Below are positions 2,036-51,033 of a stretch of 51,122 bases of DNA, piece after piece. This DNA is from an uncultured Candidatus Saccharibacteria bacterium (GTDB lineage: Bacteria > Patescibacteriota > Saccharimonadia > Saccharimonadales > EFPC-124): the NCBI GenBank assembly GCA_964405095.1, contig CAYOML010000007.1:1-51122 (forward strand), in the 5' to 3' direction. Every line of letters starts with the position of its first letter. The stretch's first letter is position 1. The notes beneath the pieces were generated by a model. That model had not been told where the DNA came from. It did no database searches and was given only the letters and a program-made list of their open reading frames with translations. Made by a program: the position numbers and the translations under genes.

Positions 2036-2067
2036 GTGTGGGCCCCGGAGAGATCCGGGGCCCACAC
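2036..2067. terminator. GC-rich perfect hairpin (GTGTGGGCCCCGG-AGAGAT-CCGGGGCCCACAC)
   Basis: A 13-bp perfect inverted repeat lies directly after the SPFH gene stop. Confidence 0.55.
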
Positions 2068-4095: not shown

Positions 4096-6459
4096 TTATC
4101 TTCCCAACTTTGTCTCTAGATTATTGATATCAATTGTTGTCTTTACTACTGTGTCTGGTGCAAGCGAAACACTGTCGATGCCGGCTTCAACCAAAAAGCG
4201 CGCGAATTCGGGGTAGTCTGAAGGTGCCTGACCACAGAGGCCGATCTTGACGTGTTTTTGTTTGGCAACCTTAATCACGAGGCGGATTAGGGCTTTTACG
4301 GCCTCGTTATTTTCGTCATAAACGTGGGCAACGGTGTGGTTGTCTCTGTCGACTCCGAGTGTAAGCTGTGTTAAGTCGTTGGAGCCGATAGAAAAGCCAT
4401 CGAACAGTTCAGCAAACTGCTCGGCCAAAATGACATTGGAGGGGATTTCTATCATCACATAGGCTTCAAACCCGTTATCCCCGCGCTTTAGGCCGTTCTT
4501 TTCCATGATGTCGAGCACTTTTTTGGCTTCGGTCAGATCTCGGCAAAATGGGACCATGGCTTTAATGTTTGTAATGCCCATGTCGTCCCGGGCCTTTTTG
4601 AAGGCTTTACATTCTAGTTCAAAGGCTGGCCGATATTCTGGAGAATAATAGCGGCTTGCGCCCCGCCAGCCAATCATCGGATTATTCTCGGCCGGCTCAA
4701 ATTGCTTGCCGCCTATTAGGCCGGCGTATTCGTTGGTCTTAAAATCACTAAATCTTATGATGACGTCGTTAGGGTAAAATGCCGCACCTAAAATAGCTAT
4801 GCCTTCGGTCAGCTTGTCGATGAAATACTGGGCTTTGTTGGTGTAGCCTGCGGTAAGGCGGTTAATAACCTCGCGCGTTGCTTTATCTTTAACTTCGTCA
4901 AACCTAAGCAGAGCAAGCGGGTGGATTTTGATATGCGAGTCTATTATAAATTCCTCGCGGGCCAGCCCAACACCGTCGTTTGGGATCATCGAATATTGGA
5001 AGGCGTGGTCGGGGGAACCAATGTTCATCATAATTTTGGTCTTTGGCCGCTCAAGATTTTCAAAACTTGTCCGGTTGACCCTAAACTTCAGTTCGCCTGC
5101 ATATACAAAACCTTCATCTCCCTCGGCGCAGCTAACTGTTATGGGCGACTTATTAGCAATCTTGGCTGTTCCGTTACCTGTACCCACTACACAAGGAATG
5201 CCCAACTCACGCGACACAATTGCCGCGTGGCAGGTGCGCCCGCCTTTGTCGGTCACGATGGCGCTGGCTTGCTTCATGATTGGTACCCAGTCGGGGTCGG
5301 TCATTTCGGTTACTAATACGTCACCTGTAGTAAATGAACTAATATCCTTGAGGTCCATAATTTTGCTGGCTTTGCCGGCACCAATTTTATTACCAACGCT
5401 CGTACCTTTGGTAAGCAGATCGCCCTTTTCTGTCAGCTCGTATTCTTCGACGATATTTAGATTCTTGCGTGATTGCACGGTTTCGCCGCGGGCTTGCACT
5501 ATGTAAAGCTTGCCATCGTCTTGGTCGAGTGCCCATTCGATGTCCATTGGGTGGCCATAGTGGTTTTCGATCTCGATTGCCCAGCGGGCTAAGGTGGTGA
5601 CTTGTTGGTCAGTGATCGAAAAACGTTCTTGGTCCTTTTTAGAGACGGCGATGTTTTTGGTCCGACTGCCAGCAATTGGAATCATCTTCATTTTTTTAGC
5701 GCCAACTTTTCTTTTAAGGATGGCCAGCGTTGGTTTAAAGACAGTAAATTCGTCGGGGCTCACCCGGCCTTGCACAATATTCTCGCCCAAGCCGTAAATA
5801 GAAGTCACCACAACGACATTACGGAAGCCTGTTTCGGTATCGATGGTAAACATAACACCAGCTGCTTCTGAACGCACAGCCACCATTTGCTGAATGCCAA
5901 CCGAAAGCGCCACCTTCATGTGTGCGAACTTGTTTTCGACCCGGTAAACTATTGCCCGGTCGGTAAATAGCGAAGCAATGCAGGCTTTAGTAGCCAGCAG
6001 TACATCTTTTTCGCCCTTTACGTTTAGGTAAGTTTCTTGTTGGCCAGCGAACGAGGCGTTAGGTAAGTCTTCGGCAGTGGCCGATGAGCGCACGGCCACC
6101 ACAAGGTTGCTCTGGCCGCAAACTTGGCTTAACTCGCGGTAGCCCTTAAGAATTTCTTCTTCGAAATCGGCTGGTAACTTGGCTTTAACAATTGTTTCGC
6201 GGATTTTGGCGCCGCGTTTTGCAAGTTCTTTAACGTTGGTTACATCCAGGTTGTCTAGTAATTGTTCGATTTGGGCTTGCAAGCCGGTTTGTTTAAGAAA
6301 ATAAAAGTAGCTGTCGGATGTTGTGGCAAAACCGTTCGGCAAGTTTACACCTTTTGGTGCTAGGTGTTTGACCATTTCGCCCAGCGAGGCGTTTTTACCG
6401 CCAACTTGGGGAATGTCAGTAAGGGCGATTTCTTTAAAAAACTTTATGTATCTGTACAT
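4096..6459 (-). CDS. ppsA: Phosphoenolpyruvate synthase (pyruvate, water dikinase)
   Basis: The N-terminus MYRYIKFFKEIALTDIPQVGGKNASLGEM is diagnostic. Phosphohistidine (CHAAIVSRELGIPCVVG) and PEP-utilising domains are present. Confidence 0.92.
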   Translation of the reverse strand: MYRYIKFFKEIALTDIPQVGGKNASLGEMVKHLAPKGVNLPNGFATTSDSYFYFLKQTGLQAQIEQLLDNLDVTNVKELAKRGAKIRETIVKAKLPADFEEEILKGYRELSQVCGQSNLVVAVRSSATAEDLPNASFAGQQETYLNVKGEKDVLLATKACIASLFTDRAIVYRVENKFAHMKVALSVGIQQMVAVRSEAAGVMFTIDTETGFRNVVVVTSIYGLGENIVQGRVSPDEFTVFKPTLAILKRKVGAKKMKMIPIAGSRTKNIAVSKKDQERFSITDQQVTTLARWAIEIENHYGHPMDIEWALDQDDGKLYIVQARGETVQSRKNLNIVEEYELTEKGDLLTKGTSVGNKIGAGKASKIMDLKDISSFTTGDVLVTEMTDPDWVPIMKQASAIVTDKGGRTCHAAIVSRELGIPCVVGTGNGTAKIANKSPITVSCAEGDEGFVYAGELKFRVNRTSFENLERPKTKIMMNIGSPDHAFQYSMIPNDGVGLAREEFIIDSHIKIHPLALLRFDEVKDKATREVINRLTAGYTNKAQYFIDKLTEGIAILGAAFYPNDVIIRFSDFKTNEYAGLIGGKQFEPAENNPMIGWRGASRYYSPEYRPAFELECKAFKKARDDMGITNIKAMVPFCRDLTEAKKVLDIMEKNGLKRGDNGFEAYVMIEIPSNVILAEQFAELFDGFSIGSNDLTQLTLGVDRDNHTVAHVYDENNEAVKALIRLVIKVAKQKHVKIGLCGQAPSDYPEFARFLVEAGIDSVSLAPDTVVKTTIDINNLETKLGR

Positions 6460-7525: not shown

Positions 7526-7595
7526 TGGGACTTCCCTTCGGTTGACTCCAACTCTTTCCTTATACAACCTATTTGCAATTTATTCAATCTTGTTG

Positions 7596-7717
7596 GTCTG
7601 CACCACCCCCATATGCTTATTTCAACGGTCTGGATGCCGAGTGCAGCCGGAGCAGCCCAAATAAGGGCTGCCCCGTGCGGAATGTGCCGTTGGAGTAAAC
7701 ATATGGGGGTGGTGCGG
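7596..7717. mobile_element. MITE-like element: ~122 bp with ~29-bp near-perfect terminal inverted repeats (TGCACCACCCCCATATGCTTATTTCAACGG ... CCGTTGGAGTAAACATATGGGGGTGGTGCGG) flanked by a 7-bp direct repeat CTTGTTG
   Basis: Inverted repeat 7599-7628 pairs with 7687-7717. Direct repeats lie at 7589-7595 and 7718-7724. An inner GCAGCCC/GGGCTGC hairpin is present. Confidence 0.55.
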
Positions 7718-7769
7718 CTTGTTGATACCTAATGACTGAGTTTACGCACGCTTATGCTTAAATAAATGC

Positions 7770-9002
7770 GTGGCATATAAATTTAACAAAAAGACGATCA
7801 AAGACGTTCCGATTGACAGCGCGACAGTTCTGATGCGTGCCGATTACAATGTGCCGCTAACCGATGATGGCAAGATTGCCGACGATTATCGTATGCTGCA
7901 GTCGCTGCCTACGCTTAATTATCTAATACGTGCCGGCTGTAAGATTGTGATTACTTCGCACCTGGGTCGCCCAGATGGCAAAGTTGTGCCAAAAGAAAGT
8001 CTGGAACCTGTAGCGGCGCACTTGAGTGAACTATTAAGTAAACCTGTCGGCTTTGTGCCGGATTGCGTTGGCGATCGCGTAAAAGTGGCGGCCAAACGTT
8101 TGAAACCTGGCGGCGTATTGCTACTAGAAAACGTGCGTTTTCATCCCGAAGAAGAAGCTAACGACGCCAAGTTTGCCAAACAAATAGTCGATAGCTCCAC
8201 AGCCACCTACTTTGTACAGGATTGTTTTGGGGTAGCTCACCGGGCACACGCCAGTATTGTCGGAGTAACACAATTTTTGCCATCGGTGGCTGGGTTGTTA
8301 CTTGAGAAAGAAGTTACCATTATTCTTCGGGCCATGCACACCCCCGAGCGTCCACTGGTTGCCGTGCTTGGTGGCGCCAAAGTCAGTGATAAAATTAAGA
8401 TTTTGGAGAAGCTTATTGAACTCGCCGACCAGATCGTGATTGGCGGCGCTATGGCCAATACCTTTCTTAAATACAAAGGTTTGCCAGTCGGTAAAAGTGT
8501 CTGTGAAGAAGGTCAGGATGCCGAGATCGAGCGTGTTTACAGCCTGGTGCGGCAAAAAGTTGGCGATGAGCGGATTGACGACTTTTTACTGTTGCCAGTC
8601 GACGTGGTTGTTGCACCAGAAATTAGTCCTAATCAAAAGCGGGTTGTAGCCGACGTGCATGATGTTAAGTCTGATGAGTATATTTTAGACATTGGTACCC
8701 GTAGCATCGAAGCTATGTTAGAGCACTGTAAAAACGCCAAAACTGTTATTTGGAACGGAACGCTTGGTTATGCCGAATACGTGGTGTTTGCTTACGCTTC
8801 GGCCAAACTTGCTATGCAGTTGGCTGAGCATAAAAACACAGTGTTTAGTTTAGTAGGTGGTGGTGACACGGCCGATTTTGTGGTGCACTGGGATAGTAAG
8901 AAGGGACAGAGTTTTGGGCATGTTTCGACGGGTGGCGGTGCCAGTCTGGAGCTGATGGCAGGTGACAAGCTACCTGGAGTTGAAGCACTGTTAGATGCTT
9001 GA
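7770..9002 (+). CDS. pgk: Phosphoglycerate kinase (GTG start)
   Basis: VAYKFNKKTIKDV...RADYNVPL N-terminus and full-length PGK motifs. Confidence 0.92.
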   Translation: MAYKFNKKTIKDVPIDSATVLMRADYNVPLTDDGKIADDYRMLQSLPTLNYLIRAGCKIVITSHLGRPDGKVVPKESLEPVAAHLSELLSKPVGFVPDCVGDRVKVAAKRLKPGGVLLLENVRFHPEEEANDAKFAKQIVDSSTATYFVQDCFGVAHRAHASIVGVTQFLPSVAGLLLEKEVTIILRAMHTPERPLVAVLGGAKVSDKIKILEKLIELADQIVIGGAMANTFLKYKGLPVGKSVCEEGQDAEIERVYSLVRQKVGDERIDDFLLLPVDVVVAPEISPNQKRVVADVHDVKSDEYILDIGTRSIEAMLEHCKNAKTVIWNGTLGYAEYVVFAYASAKLAMQLAEHKNTVFSLVGGGDTADFVVHWDSKKGQSFGHVSTGGGASLELMAGDKLPGVEALLDA

Positions 9003-9020
9003 ATATTTATGGCCGGGTCC

Positions 9021-9046
9021 CATTAACTGCCTGTGGCAGTTAATGT
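9021..9046 (+). terminator. Hairpin CATTAACTGCC-TGT-GGCAGTTAATG after pgk
   Basis: An 11-bp perfect stem lies 20 nt after the stop codon. Confidence 0.5.
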
Positions 9047-9096
9047 TTTCCTAGCTTGGCCTCGAATGGAGGCTTTAGCCGAATGAGAGCATAAGT

Positions 9097-9178
9097 GCGG
9101 CCACGTGGTTTGCCCCTAGTTTTATTTTTTAGGGTACTAAAAAAGTAAAACTGGGGCGGCCCCACCACGTGTCACCCC
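9097..9178 (-). repeat. Copy 1 of an ~85-bp palindromic repeat family (GGGGTGACACGTGG...GGGGCGGCCCC...AT-rich centre...TAGGGGCAAACCACGTGGC), in reverse orientation relative to copy 2
   Basis: The reverse complement aligns base-for-base at both ends with 24069-24154, with an identical 14-mer GGGGTGACACGTGG. Confidence 0.7.
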
Positions 9179-9262
9179 TTTTTAAACGGTTGTAAACAAC
9201 CGATAGAACCTGCTACACTTACGGTAGTCAAGTAACCATAAGTGGTTTTACTATATATAGGG

Positions 9263-10027
9263 ATGGGAAAACTAATTGTCGCCAATTGGAAGATGCATTT
9301 TACCGTAGGTGCGGCTAGTTTGTTTTTGCACAAATTGCAAGGGGCTGTGCCGACATACAAAGACACCGAGGTCGTGTTGTGCCCGAACACTCTAACTCTT
9401 CAGTCGTTATCATTACAAGTTGATCGGCGCAAGTTTAAGCTTGGTGCTCAGAATTGTTATCACCAAGATGAAGGTGCCTTTACTGGTGAGGTTTCGGCCT
9501 CGATGCTGCGTAGCATCGTTAATTATGTATTGGTTGGCCACTCCGAACGGCGCCATGTTTTTGGCGAAGACGACAAGCTGGTTGCTCTTAAAGTTCAGGC
9601 GGTTTTGCGTAACAATTTACGGCCAATTTTATGTGTCGGCGAAACTAGTCATGAGCGCACCAACGGTGAAACTCCCCATGTTCTGCACGAGCAAGTCACT
9701 ACTGGCCTGGCTAACGTGACGAGTGAAGAAATCGAGCGTGTAGTAATTGCTTACGAACCAGTTTGGGCGATTGGTAGTGATCATAGTGACACCCCAGACG
9801 ATGCGGCTATATCTAGTAAGTTGATCCGCAACCATGTTGACGCGCTGTTTGGTCGGAAGGCCGCGGCCCGAATTCAAATACTCTATGGTGGCAGTGTTGA
9901 TGCTGAGGATGCCGGTGCCTTCTTGGCGGTCAGCGGCATTGACGGTCTGTTGATTGGCGGTAGCAGCCTTAAAGCGCAGACCTTCGCCAAAATAGTACAG
10001 AGGTCACATGATTTACAAGCGGTATAA
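9263..10027 (+). CDS. tpiA: Triosephosphate isomerase
   Basis: MGKLIVANWKMH..., the active-site motif and overall TIM pattern. Confidence 0.9.
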   Translation: MGKLIVANWKMHFTVGAASLFLHKLQGAVPTYKDTEVVLCPNTLTLQSLSLQVDRRKFKLGAQNCYHQDEGAFTGEVSASMLRSIVNYVLVGHSERRHVFGEDDKLVALKVQAVLRNNLRPILCVGETSHERTNGETPHVLHEQVTTGLANVTSEEIERVVIAYEPVWAIGSDHSDTPDDAAISSKLIRNHVDALFGRKAAARIQILYGGSVDAEDAGAFLAVSGIDGLLIGGSSLKAQTFAKIVQRSHDLQAV

Positions 10028-13840: not shown

Positions 13841-13864
13841 GGGGGCCCGCGCGAGCGGGCCCCC
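13841..13864. terminator. GC-rich perfect hairpin GGGGGCCCGC-GCGA-GCGGGCCCCC
   Basis: A 10-bp perfect stem lies after the small membrane protein gene. Confidence 0.5.
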
Positions 13865-18857: not shown

Positions 18858-19471
18858 GTCAACCAACTCACGAAGATCTCGGCAAACTCCTGATCGAAGT
18901 ACTGTTACCCTTTTATTTGGTTAAACGTGACATGCGTGTGCCTATAGGTCCGAGGCGCCTGGAGAATGATGCTGAACATTCATGGGCGTTAGCCGTCATG
19001 GCTTGTGCGCTGGCGCCTGAAGTCGACCCGTCATTAGATGTTGGCAAGGTCTGTCAGTACGCGGTCGTGCATGATCTGGTAGAGCTCCACGCCGGGGATA
19101 CGACCCCGTTTGGTAGCAAGCGAAACATCTTATCTAAGGAAGAACGTGAGCATCAGGCATTAGTAACGATTAAGCAACAAACTAAGGTTTTTCCATGGCT
19201 TGCGCAAACGATTACAGAATACGAAAGCCGCTCGACCCCCGAAGCACGGTTTGTATGGGCGGCAGATAAATACATTGCTTTACTCACCAGGCATATGGAT
19301 GAGGGTAAATTTTATCGCAGCATTAAATTGACCAAGCAAAAATTTGATAAACGTATAGCCCGCAACCGCGCCAAAGCCCACGCCCACGAGGCGATCGGCA
19401 AATACTATGATCAATTGCGGGCCGAAGTCGACGCTAGCCCCCATCACTTTTACCAAAAGGACAAAAAATAG
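18854..19471 (+). CDS. HD-domain phosphohydrolase (YfbR-like 5'-nucleotidase family)
   Basis: H...HD...D motif (EHSWALAVMA...VVHDLVELHAGD). Overlaps metG by 4 nt. Confidence 0.7.
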   Translation: MSQPTHEDLGKLLIEVLLPFYLVKRDMRVPIGPRRLENDAEHSWALAVMACALAPEVDPSLDVGKVCQYAVVHDLVELHAGDTTPFGSKRNILSKEEREHQALVTIKQQTKVFPWLAQTITEYESRSTPEARFVWAADKYIALLTRHMDEGKFYRSIKLTKQKFDKRIARNRAKAHAHEAIGKYYDQLRAEVDASPHHFYQKDKK

Positions 19472-20403
19472 TGCAGCTAATAGATACGCATTGCCACATT
19501 CACGAAACCGCCTACGACTTAAACGGAGATAACCCAACGCGCGCGTTGTGGCTAAAAGCCGGAAAACCCAACCCCGACGACATAATTACACGTGCGGTTC
19601 AGGCTGATGTAACTGGTATGATTTGTGTCGGCACCTCGGCGGCCGACAGCCAACTGGCGGTGGATTTTGTTCAAGACCGCCCTAATTGCTGGGCCAGTAT
19701 TGGCATCCATCCGCACGAGGCCAAAGATGGTAAACCTGCATTCAAGCGCCTCAAAGCTTTGCTTGCTAGTCGCAAATCTAAGCCTATACGCCAGCCGGGG
19801 GTGGCGGCCGGCGGGGCATCACCCAAAAATTCTTTTCTGTACCCAGAAAAAATTTTAGGGGAGGCCGGCAGACAGGACCCGCGGACCGCGCATCCAGATA
19901 AAATAGTAGCCATAGGTGAATGTGGTCTGGATTACTTTTACTCCCACTCACCCAAAGCCGATCAGCTCAAGGCCCTTCGTTTTCAGATTGAACTAGCACT
20001 CGAGCACGATTTGCCGTTAATCTTTCATGTCCGTGAAGCCTTTGACGATTTTTGGCCAATCTTTGACAGCTACCAAGGAATCAGGGGAGTGCTGCACAGC
20101 TTCACCGATACCCAAGCCAACGCCGACAAAGCTATCGAGCGCAATCTGTACATCGGTCTCAACGGCATAATGACCTTCACCAAAAGCGATATACAGCTAG
20201 CCATGGCCAAACGCATTCCGTTGCAAAAACTACTACTCGAAACAGATGCGCCCTACTTGACTCCAGCGCCACATCGTGGTAGTATAAACGAGCCCGCGCG
20301 AACTAGGGTTGTAGCCGAGTTCTTGGCTACCCTACGCGACGAATCCCTTGTGGACCTTGCCGCGCAGACTACCCGAAACGCCCGCGAGCTGTTCCATCTT
20401 TAA
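19471..20403 (+). CDS. tatD: TatD-family metal-dependent DNase/hydrolase carrying a ~35-40 aa in-frame insertion
   Basis: TatD motifs are present: MQLIDTHCHI, GIHPH, AIGECGLDY, LETDAPY. The extra low-complexity segment SKPIRQPGVAAGGASPKNSFLYPEKILGEAGRQDPRTAHPD lies between the GIHPH and AIGECGLD blocks. Confidence 0.85.
   Translation: MQLIDTHCHIHETAYDLNGDNPTRALWLKAGKPNPDDIITRAVQADVTGMICVGTSAADSQLAVDFVQDRPNCWASIGIHPHEAKDGKPAFKRLKALLASRKSKPIRQPGVAAGGASPKNSFLYPEKILGEAGRQDPRTAHPDKIVAIGECGLDYFYSHSPKADQLKALRFQIELALEHDLPLIFHVREAFDDFWPIFDSYQGIRGVLHSFTDTQANADKAIERNLYIGLNGIMTFTKSDIQLAMAKRIPLQKLLLETDAPYLTPAPHRGSINEPARTRVVAEFLATLRDESLVDLAAQTTRNARELFHL
19796..19890 (+). repeat. Diverged intragenic copy of the palindromic repeat family, in frame inside tatD
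   Basis: GGCGGCCGGCGGGG...AAAAATTCTTTTCTGTACCCAGAAAAAATTTTAGGGGAGGCCGGCAGACAGGACCCGCGGACCGCG aligns with 24080-24154. Shared features are the TTTAGGGG.GG.C, GGCAGGACCCG and CGGACCGCG blocks and the AT-rich internal palindrome. Confidence 0.6.
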
Positions 20404-22405: not shown

Positions 22406-23011
22406 ATGATCAAGTTATTGGTAACAGTAGGGGTGGTAGTAACCGGCGCAGCTCTCGCAATCTCCGGCATCACTTCGTATTTAGGTCCTGACGATCTTAA
22501 AGATTGCACCAAGCCTGACCCGCTAGTCGTTAAGTGCGCTCCAGCCGACGTAATCGTAGCAATTAGTGGTGGCGACACGACAGCTCGGGTGGCCGAGGCC
22601 ATAAAACTATACAAAGATAGTTGGGCGCCAAAACTAATCTTTTCCGGCGCGGCGCTCGATACTTCTGGGCCCTCCAACGCCGAGACCATGCGTAACCAAG
22701 CGCTCAAGGCAGGTGTACCCGAATCGGCCCTCCTTCTAGACAACCGTGCTAAAGATACCGAACAAAACGCACAGGGCACACTAGAATTACTCGAAACCCG
22801 CGAAACGCGGATTATTTTAGTGACCTCGCCGTACCACCAACGTCGGGCTAGCTTGGAGTTTGGTCGCATACTAGGCAATCGCGTCAAAATTGTAAACCAC
22901 CCAACCAAAACCGATCGTTACTGGGGACCATCATGGTGGACAACACCAAATGGCTGGTGGTTGGCGCTGACCGAAACGACAATGAGCTTGGTTATATCGT
23001 CGTGGCGTTAA
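22406..23011 (+). CDS. DUF218/YdcF (ElyC/SanA family) protein
   Basis: VAISGGDT...LIFSGAA...NAETMRNQALKAGVPESALLLDNRAKDTEQNA. Confidence 0.65.
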   Translation: MIKLLVTVGVVVTGAALAISGITSYLGPDDLKDCTKPDPLVVKCAPADVIVAISGGDTTARVAEAIKLYKDSWAPKLIFSGAALDTSGPSNAETMRNQALKAGVPESALLLDNRAKDTEQNAQGTLELLETRETRIILVTSPYHQRRASLEFGRILGNRVKIVNHPTKTDRYWGPSWWTTPNGWWLALTETTMSLVISSWR

Positions 23012-23025
23012 AAGTATATGTTGGC

Positions 23026-24075
23026 ATGAGTGGCGGGGTAGATAGCAGCCTGAGCGCGGCACTTTTGCAAAAACAAGGCTACGATGTGACCGGTGTATAC
23101 ATGAAGAATTGGACACAAGATCTGCCCGGGATGGTTTGTCCTTGGGCCGATGACCTGGCCGACGCCAAACGCGTGGCCGTCCAACTTAATATTCCATTTA
23201 AGGTGTTTGATTTCCAGAAAGAATACAAACAAAAGGTGGTCGACTATATGATCGCCGAATACAAGGCCGGTCGCACACCCAACCCCGATATTATGTGCAA
23301 CCAAGAGGTAAAATTCGGGCTGTTTTTGCGAACTGCACTAGACGATGGTGCCGATATGATCGCCACTGGCCATTATGCTAAGGTCAACGACGGTCAATTA
23401 TTTATGGCTGTCGATAAAGCCAAAGATCAAACCTACTTTTTATACCGCGTTACCCAAAATGCACTCACCAAAACTCTTTTTCCGCTTGGTGAGCTTACCA
23501 AAACCGAAGTGCGCAAAAAAGCTATCCAACTTGGCTTGGCCACAGCTACCAAAAAAGATTCACAGGGCATCTGTTTTGTTGGCAAAGTTGGCATTAAAGA
23601 TTTTTTGCAGCAATATGTCAAGGCAGAGCCGGGCGATATTATTGATAAACGCTCCGGCCAGGTTCTTGGTCAGCACGAAGGCGCTATTTATTATACTTTT
23701 GGGCAGCGTCACGGTCTGGGAGTTGGCGGCGGTCTGCCGTATTATGTCGCCCGTAAAGATATGACTAAGAACATAGTCTACGTTACATCCGATCTTAACG
23801 ACGATTCCCTATGGCGCAGCAAACTAACCCTTAGCCAGCTGCACTGGATAGATCAAAAACCGGCAACCAATGAAAAATATAGCGTACGTTTACGCTATCG
23901 GGCCTCTCTGATTGACTGCAGATTGAGTTTGCATGGTAATATCGCAGAGGTCATACTCGCCGAACCAGAACGGGCCATTACTCCAGGGCAATCGGCTGTC
24001 GTCTATGATGGCCACCAGGTGGTTGGCGGTGGGATTGTCGAACCTGATTCTCAAAACCCATCAAACACGGGGTGA
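23026..24075 (+). CDS. mnmA: tRNA-specific 2-thiouridylase MnmA
   Basis: PP-loop MSGGVDSS and the GICFVG catalytic Cys region. The stop codon TGA is provided by the first bases of repeat copy 2. Confidence 0.9.
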   Translation: MSGGVDSSLSAALLQKQGYDVTGVYMKNWTQDLPGMVCPWADDLADAKRVAVQLNIPFKVFDFQKEYKQKVVDYMIAEYKAGRTPNPDIMCNQEVKFGLFLRTALDDGADMIATGHYAKVNDGQLFMAVDKAKDQTYFLYRVTQNALTKTLFPLGELTKTEVRKKAIQLGLATATKKDSQGICFVGKVGIKDFLQQYVKAEPGDIIDKRSGQVLGQHEGAIYYTFGQRHGLGVGGGLPYYVARKDMTKNIVYVTSDLNDDSLWRSKLTLSQLHWIDQKPATNEKYSVRLRYRASLIDCRLSLHGNIAEVILAEPERAITPGQSAVVYDGHQVVGGGIVEPDSQNPSNTG

Positions 24076-24154
24076 CACGTGGCGGGGCGGCCCCAAAGTT
24101 TTTTATGTATTCCCATAAAAAATCTTTAGGGGCGGACCGCGTGGCAGGACCCGG
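24069..24154 (+). repeat. Copy 2 of the ~85-bp palindromic repeat family
   Basis: GGGGTGACACGTGGCGGGGCGGCCCCAAAG-TTTTTTATGTATTCCCATAAAAAA-TCTTTAGGGGCGGACCGCGTGGCAGGACCCGG. Confidence 0.7.
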
Positions 24155-24221
24155 CCATTGGTATCAGGTTTTGAGAGTCAAGTTGTCGAAAGTTCATAAG
24201 TAACGCGTTATACTCATAACT

Positions 24222-25169
24222 ATGGAACCCAAACCCTGGCTTGCCATGGCGGTGTCGGCAATTGGCTTAGTATTTGTCGGCTTAGTTATCGGAGCGGTGG
24301 TGGTCGACACCATCTATCGCAAACCGATTAACCAGACAATCTTACCAGCTAACACGGCAACTAGAATAGTCGCTGCGGGCGACATAGCCTGTCCATCGTC
24401 ACAGCCAATTACAGAACTCAGTTGTCGGCAGGCCGCAACGGCTTCACTAGCACTTGCCCTGCAACCAAAAGCCGTCTTGGCTCTCGGAGATCTACAATAT
24501 CCGAGCGGCAGTCTTAGCGATTTTAAAGACAGCTTTGCCAAAAGCTGGGGGCAGCTAAAAGCCATCATTCACCCCGTGCCTGGCAATCACGAATACCAAA
24601 CCCCCGGCGCGGCCGGTTACTTTGATTATTTTGGCGCCCAAGCCGGTGAACGCGGCAAAGGCTATTACAGCTTTGACCTTGCCAGTTGGCACATCGTGGC
24701 GCTTAACTCCGAAATTGACGTTTCGCCTGCCAGTGCTCAGCGTCAATGGTTAAAAAATGATCTGGCGTCCACTCGCTTACCTTGCATTATGGCGTACTGG
24801 CATAAACCACGTTTTTCGACTGGTTATCATCCCAACGACACCACCTATGAGGGTTTATGGCAGGATTTATATAAGGCGGGAGCAGATGTAGTAGTAAACG
24901 GCCATTCGCACGATTATGAGCGATTTGTGCCGCTCACCCCCGAGGGTAAAGCCGACCCCGCCAAAGGGATTGTTGAATTTGTGTCCGGTATGGGCGGTTA
25001 CGCTCAAGAAACGCTAGGTGCCACCACATCGACGCTGGCTGTGCGGCAAAATCATGCCTTTGGCGTTTTGCAATTTGATCTTAAGGCTACAAGCCTGCGT
25101 TACAAATTTGTTACAGTCCCTGGTTCACAGGAATTCCGTGACGAAGGTGTGGTGTCATGCCATCGGTAA
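24222..25169 (+). CDS. Calcineurin-like metallophosphoesterase with an N-terminal TM anchor
   Basis: GDxxC...GNHEY...GHxH motifs. Confidence 0.7.
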   Translation: MEPKPWLAMAVSAIGLVFVGLVIGAVVVDTIYRKPINQTILPANTATRIVAAGDIACPSSQPITELSCRQAATASLALALQPKAVLALGDLQYPSGSLSDFKDSFAKSWGQLKAIIHPVPGNHEYQTPGAAGYFDYFGAQAGERGKGYYSFDLASWHIVALNSEIDVSPASAQRQWLKNDLASTRLPCIMAYWHKPRFSTGYHPNDTTYEGLWQDLYKAGADVVVNGHSHDYERFVPLTPEGKADPAKGIVEFVSGMGGYAQETLGATTSTLAVRQNHAFGVLQFDLKATSLRYKFVTVPGSQEFRDEGVVSCHR

Positions 25170-33278: not shown

Positions 33279-33578
33279 TAAATAAGTTGTACACAGTCAT
33301 AAATTGACATAACCGTCAATAGTCGGTAAAATACATACATACACTATATGGAGCGCGGAGTTTAGGCTTAAAGCGGCTGTAAAGTGTTCTTCCTTGTAAT
33401 GTCGTAAGAGATGTCTGAACACGTTATAACTAATATATAAAGGTCGACACATCTCGGTTCCAGTGGTGGGGAAGAAAGACATACTAGGAAGTATTGGTTA
33501 CAGTGGTAACACTGCAATCTGGAGACGTATATTCGCACTAATTCGCTTCAGGGCCATGCCCTGGATAGGCCTGCAAGT

Positions 33579-34667
33579 GTGCTTAAAGCTCAGGCACTTG
33601 CTGATGCAGCCGGCAGAAGCACCGCTCGCGTGCGCTCCAAAGCCAAGCGTCTTAACGCTGCGCTGATTGGTTCGCATGTAGCTGTTGTGGCCGGCATTGT
33701 GGGTGTGATTGCTTTTGGCTATCGCGCCCCGGTTGAGGCTTCACCGAGTCTGGCTTCGCAAAATGTTATTGAACAAGGCGATCTTTCGGTTGACCAAATA
33801 GCTGCTGCCACGGTGGCTGCTAACGTTGCTTCGACTCTTGATTTATCTATTGAAAATAATGTTCAGGATCTAGCCGGTACTTTAAGCGTACAGGCCGAAT
33901 TGGCCCAAACCGACAACACATTCCTATCTAAGCCCCAAATTGTCGAGCTAAACAGTGGTCGTGCTAAGGTAACACCCTATTCTAGCGTTCCGGGCGACAC
34001 CGTCCAGTCGCTGGCCGCCAAGTTTGGTGTTTCAGACGACACTATCCGTTGGGCAAACAATCTGACCAGTGACAACATCATTGCCGGTAAGGCCCTAACG
34101 ATACCTGGTACAACCGGCGTTGTCTATACGGTCAAAGCCGGTGACGACATTGGTTTGTTGGCCGAAAAATACAGTGCCGATAAAGATCGTATCGTAACCT
34201 ACAACGACCTTGAGCTAACTGGCCTGAAGCCAGGTGCGCTGATTGTTATTCCTGATGGCGTTTTACCCGGCAATGAACGCCCTGGTTACCGCCCAGCAAC
34301 ATCGCGCTACAGCCTGACTCGCGTGACAATCTTTGGTGGCAACACTTATGCCTACGGCTACTGTACATGGTATGCCTTTAATCGTCGCGCTGAACTCGGT
34401 CGCCCGGTTGGTAGCAACTGGCACAATGCCAGCACTTGGGACGATTACGCGCGGGCTGCAGGCTTCCGAGTTGACCACTCACCAGAAGCCGGTGCTGTTT
34501 TACAGGACAACTTTGGTTGGAGCAGCTTGGGCCACGTGGGTATTGTTGAACGCGTCAACGCCGACGGTAGTATTTATGTATCCGATATGAACTATGCTGG
34601 CTGGGGCCGCATTTCCTTCCGTACTATTTCTGCCGATCAAGTCACTTCATACAACTACATCCATTAG
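33579..34667 (+). CDS. Secreted LysM-repeat + CHAP-domain peptidoglycan hydrolase (GTG start)
   Basis: LysM-like segments (YTVKAGDDIGLLAEKYSADKDRIVTYN). The C-terminal CHAP domain has the catalytic Cys (YGYCTWYAF) and His (SSLGHVGIVE). Confidence 0.75.
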   Translation: MLKAQALADAAGRSTARVRSKAKRLNAALIGSHVAVVAGIVGVIAFGYRAPVEASPSLASQNVIEQGDLSVDQIAAATVAANVASTLDLSIENNVQDLAGTLSVQAELAQTDNTFLSKPQIVELNSGRAKVTPYSSVPGDTVQSLAAKFGVSDDTIRWANNLTSDNIIAGKALTIPGTTGVVYTVKAGDDIGLLAEKYSADKDRIVTYNDLELTGLKPGALIVIPDGVLPGNERPGYRPATSRYSLTRVTIFGGNTYAYGYCTWYAFNRRAELGRPVGSNWHNASTWDDYARAAGFRVDHSPEAGAVLQDNFGWSSLGHVGIVERVNADGSIYVSDMNYAGWGRISFRTISADQVTSYNYIH

Positions 34668-37822: not shown

Positions 37823-37854
37823 CCACCGGGTGGTGGACCCGCGAGCGCGTGCCC
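37823..37854. terminator. Bidirectional GC-rich hairpin CTCGCGGGTCCACC-GGGT-GGTGGACCCGCGAG
   Basis: A 14-bp perfect inverted repeat lies between convergent genes. Confidence 0.55.
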
Positions 37855-47490: not shown

Positions 47491-49257
47491 CTAGTCTTCA
47501 ATAAACCCACCGGACTGATGTTTCCAAAGCCTTGCATAAACACCGTCCTTTTCGATTAGTTGTCTATGGCTGCCTTCTTCGACAATCTTGCCATCCTGTA
47601 AAACAATAATGCGGTCCATTTTTTGGATAGTACTTAAGCGGTGGGCAATGACAACGGCGGACCGGCCGCTCATTAGCTTCCACAGGGCAGCTTGGATTAG
47701 CTTTTCGCTTTCACTGTCCAGCGCACTTGTGGCTTCATCGAGTACCAGAATTGGGGCATCCTTAATTATGGCGCGGGCGATGGCAATTCGCTGCCGCTGG
47801 CCGCCGCTTAGTTTTATGCCGCGCTCGCCAACCAGGGTGTTGTAACCGTCGCGGAGTTTGGTTATAAACTCGTGTGCGTTGGCTTTTTTGGCTGCTCCCA
47901 CAACCTCTTCGTCAGTAGCCTCCAGCCGGCCGTAACGGATGTTTTCGCTGATGGTGCGGTGAAACATAACTGGTTCTTGCGGCACGTAGGCAATAGCATT
48001 CCTAACCTCAGCTAATTTGGCGGTGGCAATATTCTGGCCGTCAATCAGCAAACTACCGCTGGCTATGTCGTTAAAGCGAAGAAGTAGCTTTGTGACTGTG
48101 GTTTTACCGCCGCCGGAATGTCCAACAAGAGCTATCTTTTCGCCGGGTGAGATGTGCAGGTCAAAGTTAGTGAATAGTGGTTGGCCCTTTCTGGAACCGC
48201 GGTAACTGAAATCGACGTGATTAAAGTCAATCGCACCACGAGTTACCTCGAATGAAGCGGGATTAGCCACCTCCTTGATTCTGTTTGGTGTCAGTATTAG
48301 CTCGGTAAATTGGGCGGCTTCGGCGGTTGCAGTCTCTAGGCGCCGGTATATTTGGTTAAACTCCCAGATAATTCGCGTTGCCTGAACGTAGTAACTAAAG
48401 GTTATAAAAATCTGCGCCATCGTTGCGCCGTCATGGCCCAACATCACCGCCAATGCTAAGCCAACCGTGTTAATAAATACGTATATTGGCGATATTTTGA
48501 GCTCAATGTTGACGTTATGGTATCTCCAGGTGTCGAGCGTTTTATTCATGAAATCGTCAACATTTTGTTCGTGGCGAGTGAGCTCGTGGTCGTAACGGGC
48601 AAAGGCCTGCACGGCGTCCATGTTGCTAATGACGTCGGCGACATGCCCGGAAACTTTGTTTGAGGCTTCCTCGCGGATATCGACCAGCTTTTTGCGGCGA
48701 TGTATTAAGGGTCGGATTAGTAAAAACGTCAGCCCGATCATGCCCAGCAAAAACACAACCAACCAGGGTGAAAACTGCCACAGAACAATCGAGACAAATA
48801 TTAATGGCACAAGGTTGGCTGCTATGTCGAATACGATAGTGTCGAACCAACCTTCAAAATTGCGTCCGTAGGCCAATGCTCTTTTGGTAAGCGAACCGGC
48901 GAAGTTGTTATGAAAGAAACCTAAGTCTTTTTTACTAAGTTCGTGCAAAGCTTCTTTGTATAAATAACGCAGCGATCTAGATTCAAAGTTCTGTAGTAGC
49001 CAGAATGTTGTCCGCCACATAGTCTCGCCGGCGAGCCACACCCCTGCGAACGCCATCAAATATGGTAAAAGGTCATTAAAGTTGGGGAGTGTTCCGTTGA
49101 AGCGTTGTAGTACTGCTGCTACGACTAGCGGTGGAGCATAAAATACCAGTATTGCGCCTAATGACACGGCGATCAGTGACAGAATCGAAAACTTGCGGTA
49201 CCGCCACACAACTGCTATGTAGCGCTGAGTTGCGAGCTGAGTTGCATCTTTATTCAT
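47491..49257 (-). CDS. ABC exporter, fused permease + ATPase (MsbA/MDR type), subunit 1 of a tandem pair
   Basis: Six-TM domain, Walker A GHSGGGKTT, signature LSGGQRQR and Walker B ILVLDEATSALD. Confidence 0.85.
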   Translation of the reverse strand: MNKDATQLATQRYIAVVWRYRKFSILSLIAVSLGAILVFYAPPLVVAAVLQRFNGTLPNFNDLLPYLMAFAGVWLAGETMWRTTFWLLQNFESRSLRYLYKEALHELSKKDLGFFHNNFAGSLTKRALAYGRNFEGWFDTIVFDIAANLVPLIFVSIVLWQFSPWLVVFLLGMIGLTFLLIRPLIHRRKKLVDIREEASNKVSGHVADVISNMDAVQAFARYDHELTRHEQNVDDFMNKTLDTWRYHNVNIELKISPIYVFINTVGLALAVMLGHDGATMAQIFITFSYYVQATRIIWEFNQIYRRLETATAEAAQFTELILTPNRIKEVANPASFEVTRGAIDFNHVDFSYRGSRKGQPLFTNFDLHISPGEKIALVGHSGGGKTTVTKLLLRFNDIASGSLLIDGQNIATAKLAEVRNAIAYVPQEPVMFHRTISENIRYGRLEATDEEVVGAAKKANAHEFITKLRDGYNTLVGERGIKLSGGQRQRIAIARAIIKDAPILVLDEATSALDSESEKLIQAALWKLMSGRSAVVIAHRLSTIQKMDRIIVLQDGKIVEEGSHRQLIEKDGVYARLWKHQSGGFIED

Positions 49258-49260
49258 AGG

Positions 49261-51033
49261 TTATTCCTCAATAAACCCACCGGACTGATGTTTCCAGAGG
49301 CCAGCATAGACACCGTCTTTTTCGAGCAATTCCTTGTGTGTACCTTGTTCGACAATCTTGCCGTCTTCCAGGACCACAATGCTATCCATACGCTGAATGG
49401 TGCTTAAACGGTGAGCGATCACAATTGCCGTGCGGCCTTCCATTAATTCCCATAATGCCGATTGGATTAGCTTTTCACTTTCGCTGTCTAAAGCGCTGGT
49501 TGCTTCGTCGAGTACCAAAATTGGGGCGTCTTTTAACATGGCGCGGGCAATGGCTACGCGTTGTCGTTGGCCGCCACTTAACTTTATGCCGCGCTCGCCA
49601 ACCAGAGTGTCGTAGCCGTTCGGTAGCTTATCGATGAACTCGGTGGCATTGGCGCGCTGGGCGGCAAGGAGGACATCATCATTAGTGGCTTTAGGTGTGC
49701 TGTAGGCGATATTCTCGCGAATACTTCGGTGGAATAGCAACGGTTCTTGTGGTACGTATGCGATGGAACGCCGAAGGTCGGTCTGGCGAATGTCGGCAAT
49801 ATTCTGGCCATCAATACTTATTTCGCCCGAGTCGATGTCGGAGTAACGCAACAGAAGTTTTGTAAAAGTGGTTTTGCCAGAGCCAGAGTGTCCGATCAGA
49901 CCGATCTTTTTACCGGGTTCTATTTTCAGACTCAAGTCTTTAAATAGGGGCTCGTGCGCGTCGGGGTGGCTAAAGTAGACGTCCTTAAATTCTATCTTAC
50001 CCTTCTTTATTTGAGCATCTTGCGGGCTGGTTGAGTCTTGGACCTCACTCTTCAATGCAAGATTATCTAGCATTTGCTGCGAGTCACCAATTGCGCGGTT
50101 GTAATTGCGTAGTGTTTGGGTACTAAACTCCCACAACCTTTGAGTTAGATCGCCGGTGTAGGCAAGCATCAGGAACACAGCCGCTACATCAGCTCTAAAG
50201 AGGACGACGCTGGCGCAGGCAATAACTAACGCCGAAACATTTATGGTGCTCGTAAAGCTGCCGGACAAAATATCACGACGAGTTGTCACGCGCATTACGT
50301 GAGTAGTGGCTGCCCGGCTGGCTTCGGTAACGGCCGCATAGCGTTGGTTTTCGTAACCTTCGGCAGCGAAGCTCTTTATGGCCATAATGTTAGTCATACC
50401 ATCGGCCAAATAACCGGTTTGCTTGTTTTGAGCTTCGGCTTCGGCAGCGTTGGCGGCCCGAACTCTGCGACTGAATAAGTACATTGTCACCATGAAAATA
50501 AGGCTAATTACCCACAGCGCAATCACATACATTGGCGAGCGCGGCCACAAAATGAATGAAGCAAAGCTATAAGCCACAATCATAGTAACGATGTCAAACC
50601 AAGTACTATCAGCAAAACGTATGTATGCACCGGCTAACTTGTTGGTCTGCGATACTAACGAACCGCCAAAGCGATTAGCATGGAAGGTCGAGCTTTGATT
50701 TATAAGGTGCTCGAAGACTTCTTGATGGATGTCCCTAGTTACCAACATCTCCAGCTTCCAGATCAAAATCACCGAAATTCGCCATAAAACAATCCCGCCC
50801 AAAAAGACAAGGGCAGCGTAAGTCATAAGTGATGGTCCAAAACTGCCCCACAGGTCGTTCCTTGTAAAGTCACCGTGGCTTACGCGGTTTATGACATCAG
50901 CAGCAACAAGCGCCGGCAAAAAGGCGTTGAATAACACACTGAGGGGGATGAATATGGCAAGACCCACAATATACTTTGGGTACTTGCGCATATGGCCCCA
51001 GAAATACTGGACCGTCTGCTTTGCAGCTGCCAT
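49261..51033 (-). CDS. ABC exporter, fused permease + ATPase, subunit 2 (paralog of the preceding gene)
   Basis: Walker A GHSGSGKTT and LSGGQRQR. The C-terminal 40 codons are near-identical to the neighbour at the DNA level. Confidence 0.85.
   Translation of the reverse strand: MAAAKQTVQYFWGHMRKYPKYIVGLAIFIPLSVLFNAFLPALVAADVINRVSHGDFTRNDLWGSFGPSLMTYAALVFLGGIVLWRISVILIWKLEMLVTRDIHQEVFEHLINQSSTFHANRFGGSLVSQTNKLAGAYIRFADSTWFDIVTMIVAYSFASFILWPRSPMYVIALWVISLIFMVTMYLFSRRVRAANAAEAEAQNKQTGYLADGMTNIMAIKSFAAEGYENQRYAAVTEASRAATTHVMRVTTRRDILSGSFTSTINVSALVIACASVVLFRADVAAVFLMLAYTGDLTQRLWEFSTQTLRNYNRAIGDSQQMLDNLALKSEVQDSTSPQDAQIKKGKIEFKDVYFSHPDAHEPLFKDLSLKIEPGKKIGLIGHSGSGKTTFTKLLLRYSDIDSGEISIDGQNIADIRQTDLRRSIAYVPQEPLLFHRSIRENIAYSTPKATNDDVLLAAQRANATEFIDKLPNGYDTLVGERGIKLSGGQRQRVAIARAMLKDAPILVLDEATSALDSESEKLIQSALWELMEGRTAIVIAHRLSTIQRMDSIVVLEDGKIVEQGTHKELLEKDGVYAGLWKHQSGGFIEE

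Follow-up and report, generated by a model that had tools for sequence, protein, structure and literature searches.

What is the GC-clamped palindrome that stands behind both pgk and mnmA in the genome of an uncultured member of the Saccharibacteria, and how did it come to occupy unrelated loci in opposite orientations? An initial annotation of the 51,122 nucleotides of DNA analysed here (the window) had described it as a repeat of ~85 bp that probably acts as a terminator or as a REP/BIME-like element of RNA stability, and had proposed that the repeat spreads and that a third, diverged copy lies inside tatD. Saccharibacteria and other CPR bacteria have genomes of ~1 Mb. As set out below, the repeat is likely a MITE, one of a family of palindromic, non-autonomous transposable elements in the Saccharimonadales (Saccharibacteria/TM7), and this family behaves like the Rickettsia palindromic elements (RPEs).

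Anatomy of the element

The similarity from which the annotation started is genuine: the reverse complement of 9097-9178 aligns end to end with 24069-24154 at a mean column identity of 80% (flanks included), the 14-mer GGGGTGACACGTGG is identical in the two copies, and a blastn-short search within the window returned the 27-nt left end with E = 1.2e-5. The repeat unit is, however, larger than the ~85 bp assigned to it. In its best-preserved form, the copy after mnmA (copy 2), it measures 140 bp and has the following surroundings:

22933-24075, plus strand: mnmA, whose 3' end was struck by copy 2
24035-24042, no strand assigned: left copy of the target-site duplication, TTGTCGAA, an exact 8-mer abutting the left inverted-repeat end
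24043-24182, plus strand: copy 2, the best-preserved full element, 140 bp (sequence comparison and covariance model)
24183-24190, no strand assigned: right copy of the target-site duplication, TTGTCGAA, an exact 8-bp direct repeat abutting the right inverted repeat
24222-25169, plus strand: metallophosphoesterase gene downstream of copy 2, with a -10-like TATACT box kept between element and gene

The full unit of ~140 bp has a core of ~95 nt that is set off by short non-complementary spacers from 16-bp terminal inverted repeats. The inverted repeats of copy 2 are CCTGATTCTCAAAACC (24043-24058) and GGTTTTGAGAGTCAAG (24167-24182), and a comparison of these two ends shows that CCTGATTCTCAAAACC matches the reverse complement CTTGACTCTCAAAACC at 14 of 16 positions; copy 2 also has an additional perfect outer stem outside the core. 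The core itself (24064-24162; 97.1 bits with the covariance model described below) forms a hairpin of four helices, of which the outer ones are GC-rich, around an AT-rich centre. Its outermost helix pairs GGGGT on the left with ACCC on the right, and copy-to-copy comparison shows that the right end of the core runs to ...GTGGCAGGACCC(G). Each copy is a long imperfect hairpin, as had been proposed, with a folding energy between -38.8 and -41.2 kcal/mol (z between -2.7 and -4.8). Open frames within the element span only 33-44 codons and have no family match; the element has no protein of its own.

The TGA stop codon of mnmA was already known to lie inside copy 2, and the element supplies the last 10 codons of the gene as well. 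Removal of 24043-24190 in silico (the element plus one repeat) yields an mnmA of 372 aa that ends in ...GGGIVESS*; the mnmA proteins of two syntenic relatives end in ...GGGIVAEAM* (L019) and ...GGGIIA* (L132). The reconstructed junction aligns with the empty sites of both L132 and L019, including the TATACT box before the next gene. Because of this reconstruction and the mnmA ends of the relatives, the present tail of the protein, PDSQNPSNTG*, can be assigned to the element. Taken together, the inverted repeats of copy 2, the exact 8-bp duplication on both sides and the restored mnmA are the signature of a transposase-mediated insertion with an 8-bp target-site duplication.

A damaged copy between pgk and tpiA

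The position of the two intergenic copies after pgk and mnmA was given correctly in the initial annotation, with one correction to the flanking genes: the gene that follows copy 1 is tpiA. The features of this region are:

7770-9002, plus strand: pgk, the host gene upstream of copy 1, with a native C-terminus (...EALLDA*)
8998-9187, minus strand: copy 1, located between pgk and tpiA, rearranged and degenerate, core hairpin at 9083-9183
9021-9049, plus strand: terminator-like hairpin with TTTT directly after pgk, in the extra segment of copy 1, on the upstream side of its core
9242-10027, plus strand: tpiA, the gene downstream of copy 1 (gene identification)

Copy 1 is rearranged, truncated and damaged. 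A remnant of its right outer arm, CTTGAATATTTATGGCCGGGTCC, is found at 8998-9020 and overlaps the pgk stop codon; this arm contains the 12-mer GGACCCGGCCAT, which is common only to copy 2. Inside the right arm, between GGGTCC and the core, there are ~72 extra nucleotides (9021-9092). The left outer arm is cut to 9 nt past the core, at the point where the GGTTGT...TACACT stretch upstream of tpiA starts, which is orthologous to L019. The hairpin at 9021-9049 within the extra segment is the only terminator-like site that a terminator scan found after pgk, and the segment also holds a second small hairpin (GCCTC...GAGGC). The extra segment could be a nested insertion, or copy 1 could descend from a longer variant of the element that carries a terminator. 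Searches for target-site duplications at copies 1 and 3 found none; copy 2 is the only copy with a clean duplication, and the terminal inverted repeats of copies 1 and 3 are decayed or truncated.

Orthologous sites are empty in relatives

The closest MetRS and TatD homologues of the window are labelled Candidatus Saccharimonadales. In three syntenic relatives with MetRS identities of 78-81% (L018, L019 and L020), each of the three sites is empty, as judged both by nhmmer and by the covariance model. The pgk-tpiA spacer has 58 bp in L019 versus 239 bp in the window, and TatD has 267-270 aa in the syntenic relatives versus 310 aa in the window. In the closest relative (MetRS identity 92%) the spacer between mnmA and the metallophosphoesterase gene has 55 bp versus 146 bp in the window, as read from the gene table only.

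The proposal that the family spreads is borne out by these empty sites, by the occurrence of copies at unrelated loci and in both orientations, and by further copies in other Saccharimonadales. Both the number of copies, three in the 51 kb of the window, and their presence or absence among relatives (empty sites in L018, L019, L132 and L130) are as expected of a MITE.

Family members outside the window

A covariance model was built from five copies, with the window copies and the TatD insert of L128 among the training members. This model, which had been suggested earlier as a check, recovers exactly three copies from the window, with E values between 4e-19 and 2e-25; all three are training members. 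It also recognises copies that were not used for training: the TatD inserts of L129, L130 and L131, with E between 5e-8 and 5e-7, and another copy in L129 (L129:15483-15649; E = 4e-6). L129 is part of a 1.18-Mb JGI contig, and its second copy lies 5 kb from tatD, giving two copies in the 21 kb of this locus. Close to the start of a gene of the ATP-synthase operon, this second copy is inserted in frame and spans ~74 codons; relative to its L130 orthologue, the gene has an N-terminal extension of 74 aa. The two L129 copies are 83% identical to each other, whereas the L129 TatD copy is only 67% identical to the orthologous TatD copy of L130, indicating copying within the genome or gene conversion. 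Three shorter GC-rich hairpins of the window (2036-2067, 13841-13864 and 37823-37854), which had been considered as decayed relatives, do not belong to the family: those at 2036 and 13841 score E ~2-3, the one at 37823 is not listed by the model, and all are dissimilar stem-loops after stop codons.

Searches at a larger scale added few members. A scan of the JGI metagenomes with GGGGTGACACGTGGNGGGGC returned six loci, of which only L123 (MJUJ01044947.1, GC 45%) is genuine. Its copy lies between genes, 24 nt from the preceding stop codon, and has a 12-bp outer inverted repeat of its own and flanks that match at 5 of 8 positions. When 185,579 species-representative genomes were scanned with ACACGTGGNGGGGCNGCCCC, all 15 matches were chance hits in unrelated and mostly high-GC genomes; the source genome lies outside this collection. 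As the left-end motif is absent from the 185,579 genomes and was found once in the JGI metagenomes, the recognisable family is rare, narrow or fast-diverging. A viral scan with the bare 14-mer matched at least 100 loci by chance, among which nhmmer detected no element, and there was no match to the element in the plasmid collection.

At the protein level, a peptide search of 1.8 billion representatives gave one true match and three spurious repeat proteins. The true match, P0243, is a hypothetical protein (ORF) of 66 aa from a JGI metagenome contig. It has 64% identity to translated copy 2, with the GPGH tail in common; the pairwise comparison gives E = 3e-14, the search of the 1.8 billion proteins E = 3.4e-5. 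A protein search with concatenated translations of the element had no match; the same search also missed the TatD of the window (P0121), which carries a 36-aa exact stretch of the query, so that its negative outcome has no weight.

One metagenome contig with 61% GC, L126 (Ga0307489_10008214), has a tandem array of ~30-nt units at ~5650-5800, each with GTGACACGTGGCGGGGCGG, which coincides with the left arm of the element. Any likeness of this array beyond the searched pattern is probably a coincidence.

Copy 3 and the insertion-prone loop of TatD

The third, diverged copy inside tatD was confirmed by the covariance model and is in frame with its host gene:

19471-20403, plus strand: tatD (TatD-family hydrolase), 310 aa; the baseline in relatives is 266-273 aa
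19771-19896, plus strand: copy 3, 126 nt inserted in frame into tatD (residues 101-142, RKSKPIRQPGVAAGGASPKNSFLYPEKILGEAGRQDPRTAHP), core hairpin at 19793-19890

The TatD protein of the window is thus 310 aa long because of the 42 aa that copy 3 has inserted. An AlphaFold2 model of this protein (64 homologues) has a mean pLDDT of 88.9, and low values (45-54) occur only at residues ~100-144. In this model, the peptide encoded by copy 3 is a predicted loop between the helix at 81-99 and the IVAIGECGLD strand at 145-154, and the insert is therewith predicted to be a disordered surface loop.

Extra residues at exactly this point, from 1 to ~115 aa, are found in 44 of 120 TatD homologues (P0121-P0240). 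Inserts that belong to the family described here are present in the window and in four further lineages. The inserted peptides are not conserved, and the reading frame of the same DNA differs between lineages: it gives GVAAGGASPK in the window and GWQPAGQHPP in L129 and L130, the latter matching the +1 frame of copy 3. On a neighbour-joining tree of the 120 sequences, built with the insert masked, the insert state changes 21 times, versus at least 28 times when the labels are shuffled; insert-bearing TatDs are therefore clustered, with a patchy distribution. The nearest insert-free protein, P0123, is 70% identical to the TatD of the window and thereby closer to it than most insert-bearing ones. 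The window and L128 have a flanking insert sequence in common, CGCCAGCC (peptide RQPGV), though their TatD proteins are only ~58% identical.

The larger insert of L132 (L132:10292-10513) contains two adjacent palindromes with arms of 27-28 nt that are 81-86% complementary; they are unrelated to the 140-bp family. The family covariance model recognised neither the TatD insert of L132 nor that of L133. The loop before IVAIGECGLD may be a recurrent insertion hotspot across the Saccharimonadales, or may have received a single insertion that diverged later.

In a Logan contig (SRR9179560), the TatD gene of L127 (L127:173-1105) is identical to that of the window over the first 580 nt, including copy 3, and has 151 differences in the remaining ~350 nt. 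This pattern suggests either recombination between strains or a chimeric contig.

Conservation of the hairpin

Pairing within the element was compared with shuffled controls and with controls in which the pairing partners were slid along the alignment; the alignments behind the 9-copy and the TatD-only counts were fitted to the covariance model:

5 copies, MAFFT alignment: paired cells 89.6% (shuffled 75.0 +/- 2.5%); pair changes on both sides 13 (shuffled 5.5 +/- 1.6; slid partners 1-3)
9 copies, model-fitted: paired cells 92.2% (shuffled 72.0 +/- 2.1%); changes on both sides 17 (shuffled 10.1 +/- 1.8; slid partners 5-9)
5 TatD copies only, model-fitted: paired cells 94.7% (shuffled 77.8 +/- 2.5%); changes on both sides 13 (shuffled 5.5 +/- 1.7)

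Many compensatory changes thus keep the long hairpin intact. Among the TatD copies, helix 2 occurs in five different versions, each self-complementary, and in L130 a GC-rich stem replaces the AT-rich central stem with pairing kept. Three causes fit this covariation: a transposition machinery that needs the hairpin, homogenisation of the arms by gene conversion, or a TatD loop that is repeatedly refilled by fresh palindromic copies. The covariation data by themselves are no demonstration of RNA function.

A transposition model and its rivals

The anatomy of copy 2 and the empty sites in relatives argue for the following scenario. A transposase encoded elsewhere would recognise the ends of the element, insert the unit and duplicate 8 bp of the target. 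Copies would survive where they are harmless, that is, at or just after stop codons, where the TGA of the element could replace the stop codon of the host gene; alternatively, they would survive in frame and free of stop codons in permissive surface loops of proteins, adding disordered peptide as RPEs do. The family and its anatomy, the target-site duplication, the empty sites, the in-frame copies and the conservation of the hairpin are observed; the involvement of a transposase, its identity and any current activity of the family are what we infer. The sizeable ORFs of the window are all housekeeping genes with no transposase among them, the inverted-repeat motif had no match in the other comparison loci, and no autonomous IS with matching ends was found in the window or in these loci. 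IS families that make 8-bp duplications, such as ISL3, IS6, IS256, IS66 and IS1595, would be candidates for the parent element. Against a reading as MITE stand the GC-rich ends of the element, as typical MITEs are AT-rich, the single clean target-site duplication, the lack of a matching IS in these sequences and the rarity of the left-end motif.

Mere chance resemblance among GC-rich hairpins, with no family behind it, has already been refuted, and we give it practically no credence. Earlier, the similarity had been held to exceed chance on account of the identical 14-mer; the conclusion stands for the whole element, which is significant, and falls for the 14-mer alone, which with 3 mismatches allowed is no commoner than in shuffled sequence, just as the left-end motif arises by chance in high-GC genomes. 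Against chance speak the full-length alignment (80% identical), the inverted-repeat and tail motifs that the copies have in common, the covariance-model matches outside the training set (E = 5e-8 to 4e-6) and the protein-level match of P0243. It is very unlikely that the copies are primarily functional cis-acting RNA elements, either intrinsic terminators or REP/BIME-like stabilisers of 3' ends, which are selected for this role and multiply incidentally. Copies 1 and 2 and the L123 copy do lie just downstream of coding regions, the hairpins are very stable and kept by compensatory changes, and TTTTT follows copy 1 on the transcribed strand; however, the canonical hairpin and T-run of pgk at 9021-9049 already precede copy 1, and the scan for a GC-rich hairpin with an immediate T-tract finds no such site at the element core of copy 1 or at copy 2, which has no T-tract. 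The L123 copy has no T-run either. The orientation of the copies relative to transcription varies, relatives manage without the element at the same junctions, and two family members lie in frame inside genes, where termination would be harmful. In Rfam 15 the element has no match, either at the gathering threshold in a scan of the window or at E <= 1 in copy 2. Finally, a role in RNA would leave the terminal inverted repeats and the target-site duplication unexplained. The terminator function first suggested for the element is thus not upheld, and a secondary effect on mRNA 3'-end stability is possible.

The TatD loop invites a different reading, namely that its palindrome goes back to a single ancient insertion, that the hairpin was kept by selection on the DNA or mRNA of tatD or by gene conversion between the arms, and that this master copy has occasionally given rise to the intergenic copies. 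We consider this quite unlikely. It would agree with the many lineages that carry inserts in the same loop, with the flanking sequence that the window and L128 have in common despite ~58% TatD identity, and with the likeness of the second L129 copy to L129's own TatD copy. The pairing among TatD-only copies (94.7% versus 77.8 +/- 2.5% when shuffled), the five self-complementary versions of helix 2 and the GC-rich central stem of L130, which still pairs while the peptide is unconserved and its frames differ, are on the same side, but the alignments behind the 9-copy and the TatD-only counts were fitted to the model. The distribution of inserts is, moreover, patchy, with 21 changes among 120 sequences, and the insert-free P0123 (70% identity) is closer to the TatD of the window than most insert-bearing proteins. 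As L132 has two unrelated palindromes in the very same loop, repeated insertion at a hotspot is favoured, which would give apparent covariation without selection. A broader variant of this idea, which we regard as rather unlikely, sees in the TatD loop a landing pad or reservoir for palindromic elements across the Saccharimonadales: selection on the structure of the DNA or mRNA, or else arm-to-arm gene conversion, would actively maintain the hairpin within the coding sequence as frame changes let the peptide drift freely, and a master copy in tatD would seed intergenic and intragenic copies in each genome. The transposition of a MITE family into sites that tolerate it is the reading that we prefer to all of these.

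A second palindrome and other features of the window

A second palindromic element is located upstream of pgk at 7597-7717. It has 121 nt, with arms of 29 nt that are 90% complementary and a DNA fold of -40 kcal/mol (z = -6.8), and is flanked by CTTGTTGG (7589-7596) and CTTGTTGA (7718-7725), an 8-bp direct repeat with 7 of 8 positions matching. The palindrome is absent upstream of pgk in L018, and no other copy was found in the window or in the comparison loci. It is probably a member of another MITE family, unrelated to the 140-bp element. Both copy 2 and this palindrome have 8-bp repeats, so the contig has undergone transposition with an 8-bp duplication at least two times. The copies of the 140-bp element are break points of Logan contigs, and so is the unrelated palindrome; because palindromes themselves break assemblies, these breaks are weak evidence for repetitiveness.

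The window has a GC content of 49%, and three further features of it were recorded. The contig begins inside a tRNA gene (1-52; Rfam tRNA, model positions 20-71, with the 5' end cut). A lysM-TM7 RNA motif (RF03005, 72.8 bits) at 33387-33524 immediately precedes a LysM/CHAP-domain gene (33579-34667), which is the expected place for it, and also identifies the phylum. On the minus strand, 47491-51033 holds two tandem paralogous ABC-transporter genes with fused membrane and ATPase domains, and a stretch of 300 nt is 75% identical between them.

Comparison with known mobile and palindromic elements

Two other systems were considered and rejected. A template/variable repeat pair of a diversity-generating retroelement does not apply: no reverse transcriptase is encoded in the window, and indels as well as changes at all four bases separate the copies. 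Integron attC sites have core sites of the GTTRRRY type; the ends of the element are unlike these, and there is no cassette context.

REPs are 20-40 nt long and strictly extragenic, have a conserved GTAG-type head and a link to a RAYT (IS200/IS605-like) transposase, and are not known to have terminal inverted repeats or target-site duplications. The REP/BIME comparison made in the initial annotation captures that the copies are imperfect palindromes after genes, in either orientation, and able to form hairpins in mRNA. It does not hold for the anatomy, which is that of a MITE: the 140-bp unit has 16-bp terminal inverted repeats and an 8-bp duplication, occurs also inside genes and lacks the GTAG head, setting it apart from REP/BIME. 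There is no gene for a RAYT-type transposase in the window.

MITEs are recognised by being short, by the lack of a transposase gene, by terminal inverted repeats and by flanking duplications (PMC10969869). At 140 bp and with no transposase gene, the element is well within the MITE limit of <500 bp; its inverted repeats are within the range of ~4-30 bp in copy 2, and as an outer 12-bp stem in L123, and copy 2 has the exact 8-bp duplication on both sides. Like the prokaryotic MITEs Correia (CREE) of Neisseria, QMITE2 of Coxiella, Chunjie of Geobacter and ERIC, it combines a short non-coding unit with 16-bp inverted repeats and 8-bp direct repeats, and forms a stable stem-loop in the transcript or single strand. 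It also resembles them in its preference for gene 3' ends and intergenic DNA, in the existence of size-variant or truncated copies and in its presence or absence between relatives. Unlike these MITEs, its ends are GC-rich and only the centre is AT-rich, few copies are seen, the host has an ultra-small CPR genome, and no parent IS was found.

RPEs are palindromic repeats of ~100-150 bp in a reduced genome that occur both between genes and in frame within housekeeping genes, where they add a peptide without destroying the protein (PMC10969869). The parallel is close: in-frame copies are present here in tatD of at least five lineages and in the gene of the L129 ATP-synthase operon, and the tatD insertion lies at a position compatible with the predicted protein fold. 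In contrast to RPE families, which are described as encoding a conserved peptide, the peptide here is unconserved and its frame differs between lineages; the host phylum is unrelated, and the element has a target-site duplication and terminal inverted repeats. In its encoded peptide and in its host, the Saccharimonadales, the family departs from the ten sequence families of RPEs in Rickettsia.

Several consequences follow for the biology and the genomics of these bacteria. Transposition with an 8-bp duplication has acted in this Saccharibacteria lineage. The 3' end of one housekeeping gene, mnmA, has been rewritten by it, with the element supplying the stop codon and the 10 codons before it, and in-frame insertion has added predicted disordered loops to TatD and a protein of the ATP-synthase operon, parallel to Rickettsia. 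Such palindromes fragment short-read MAG assemblies and add to the length of genes; as strain markers they could be of use. With its recurrent inserts, the TatD loop also offers a tractable case for the question of whether hairpins within coding sequence can be conserved.

The searchable literature gave no relevant description of MITE- or RPE-type repeats in Saccharibacteria or CPR bacteria. Set beside the known systems, the element represents a previously undescribed MITE/RPE-like family in the Saccharimonadales, a new family rather than a new mechanism, and its most unusual feature is the recurrence of palindromic inserts in the loop of TatD.
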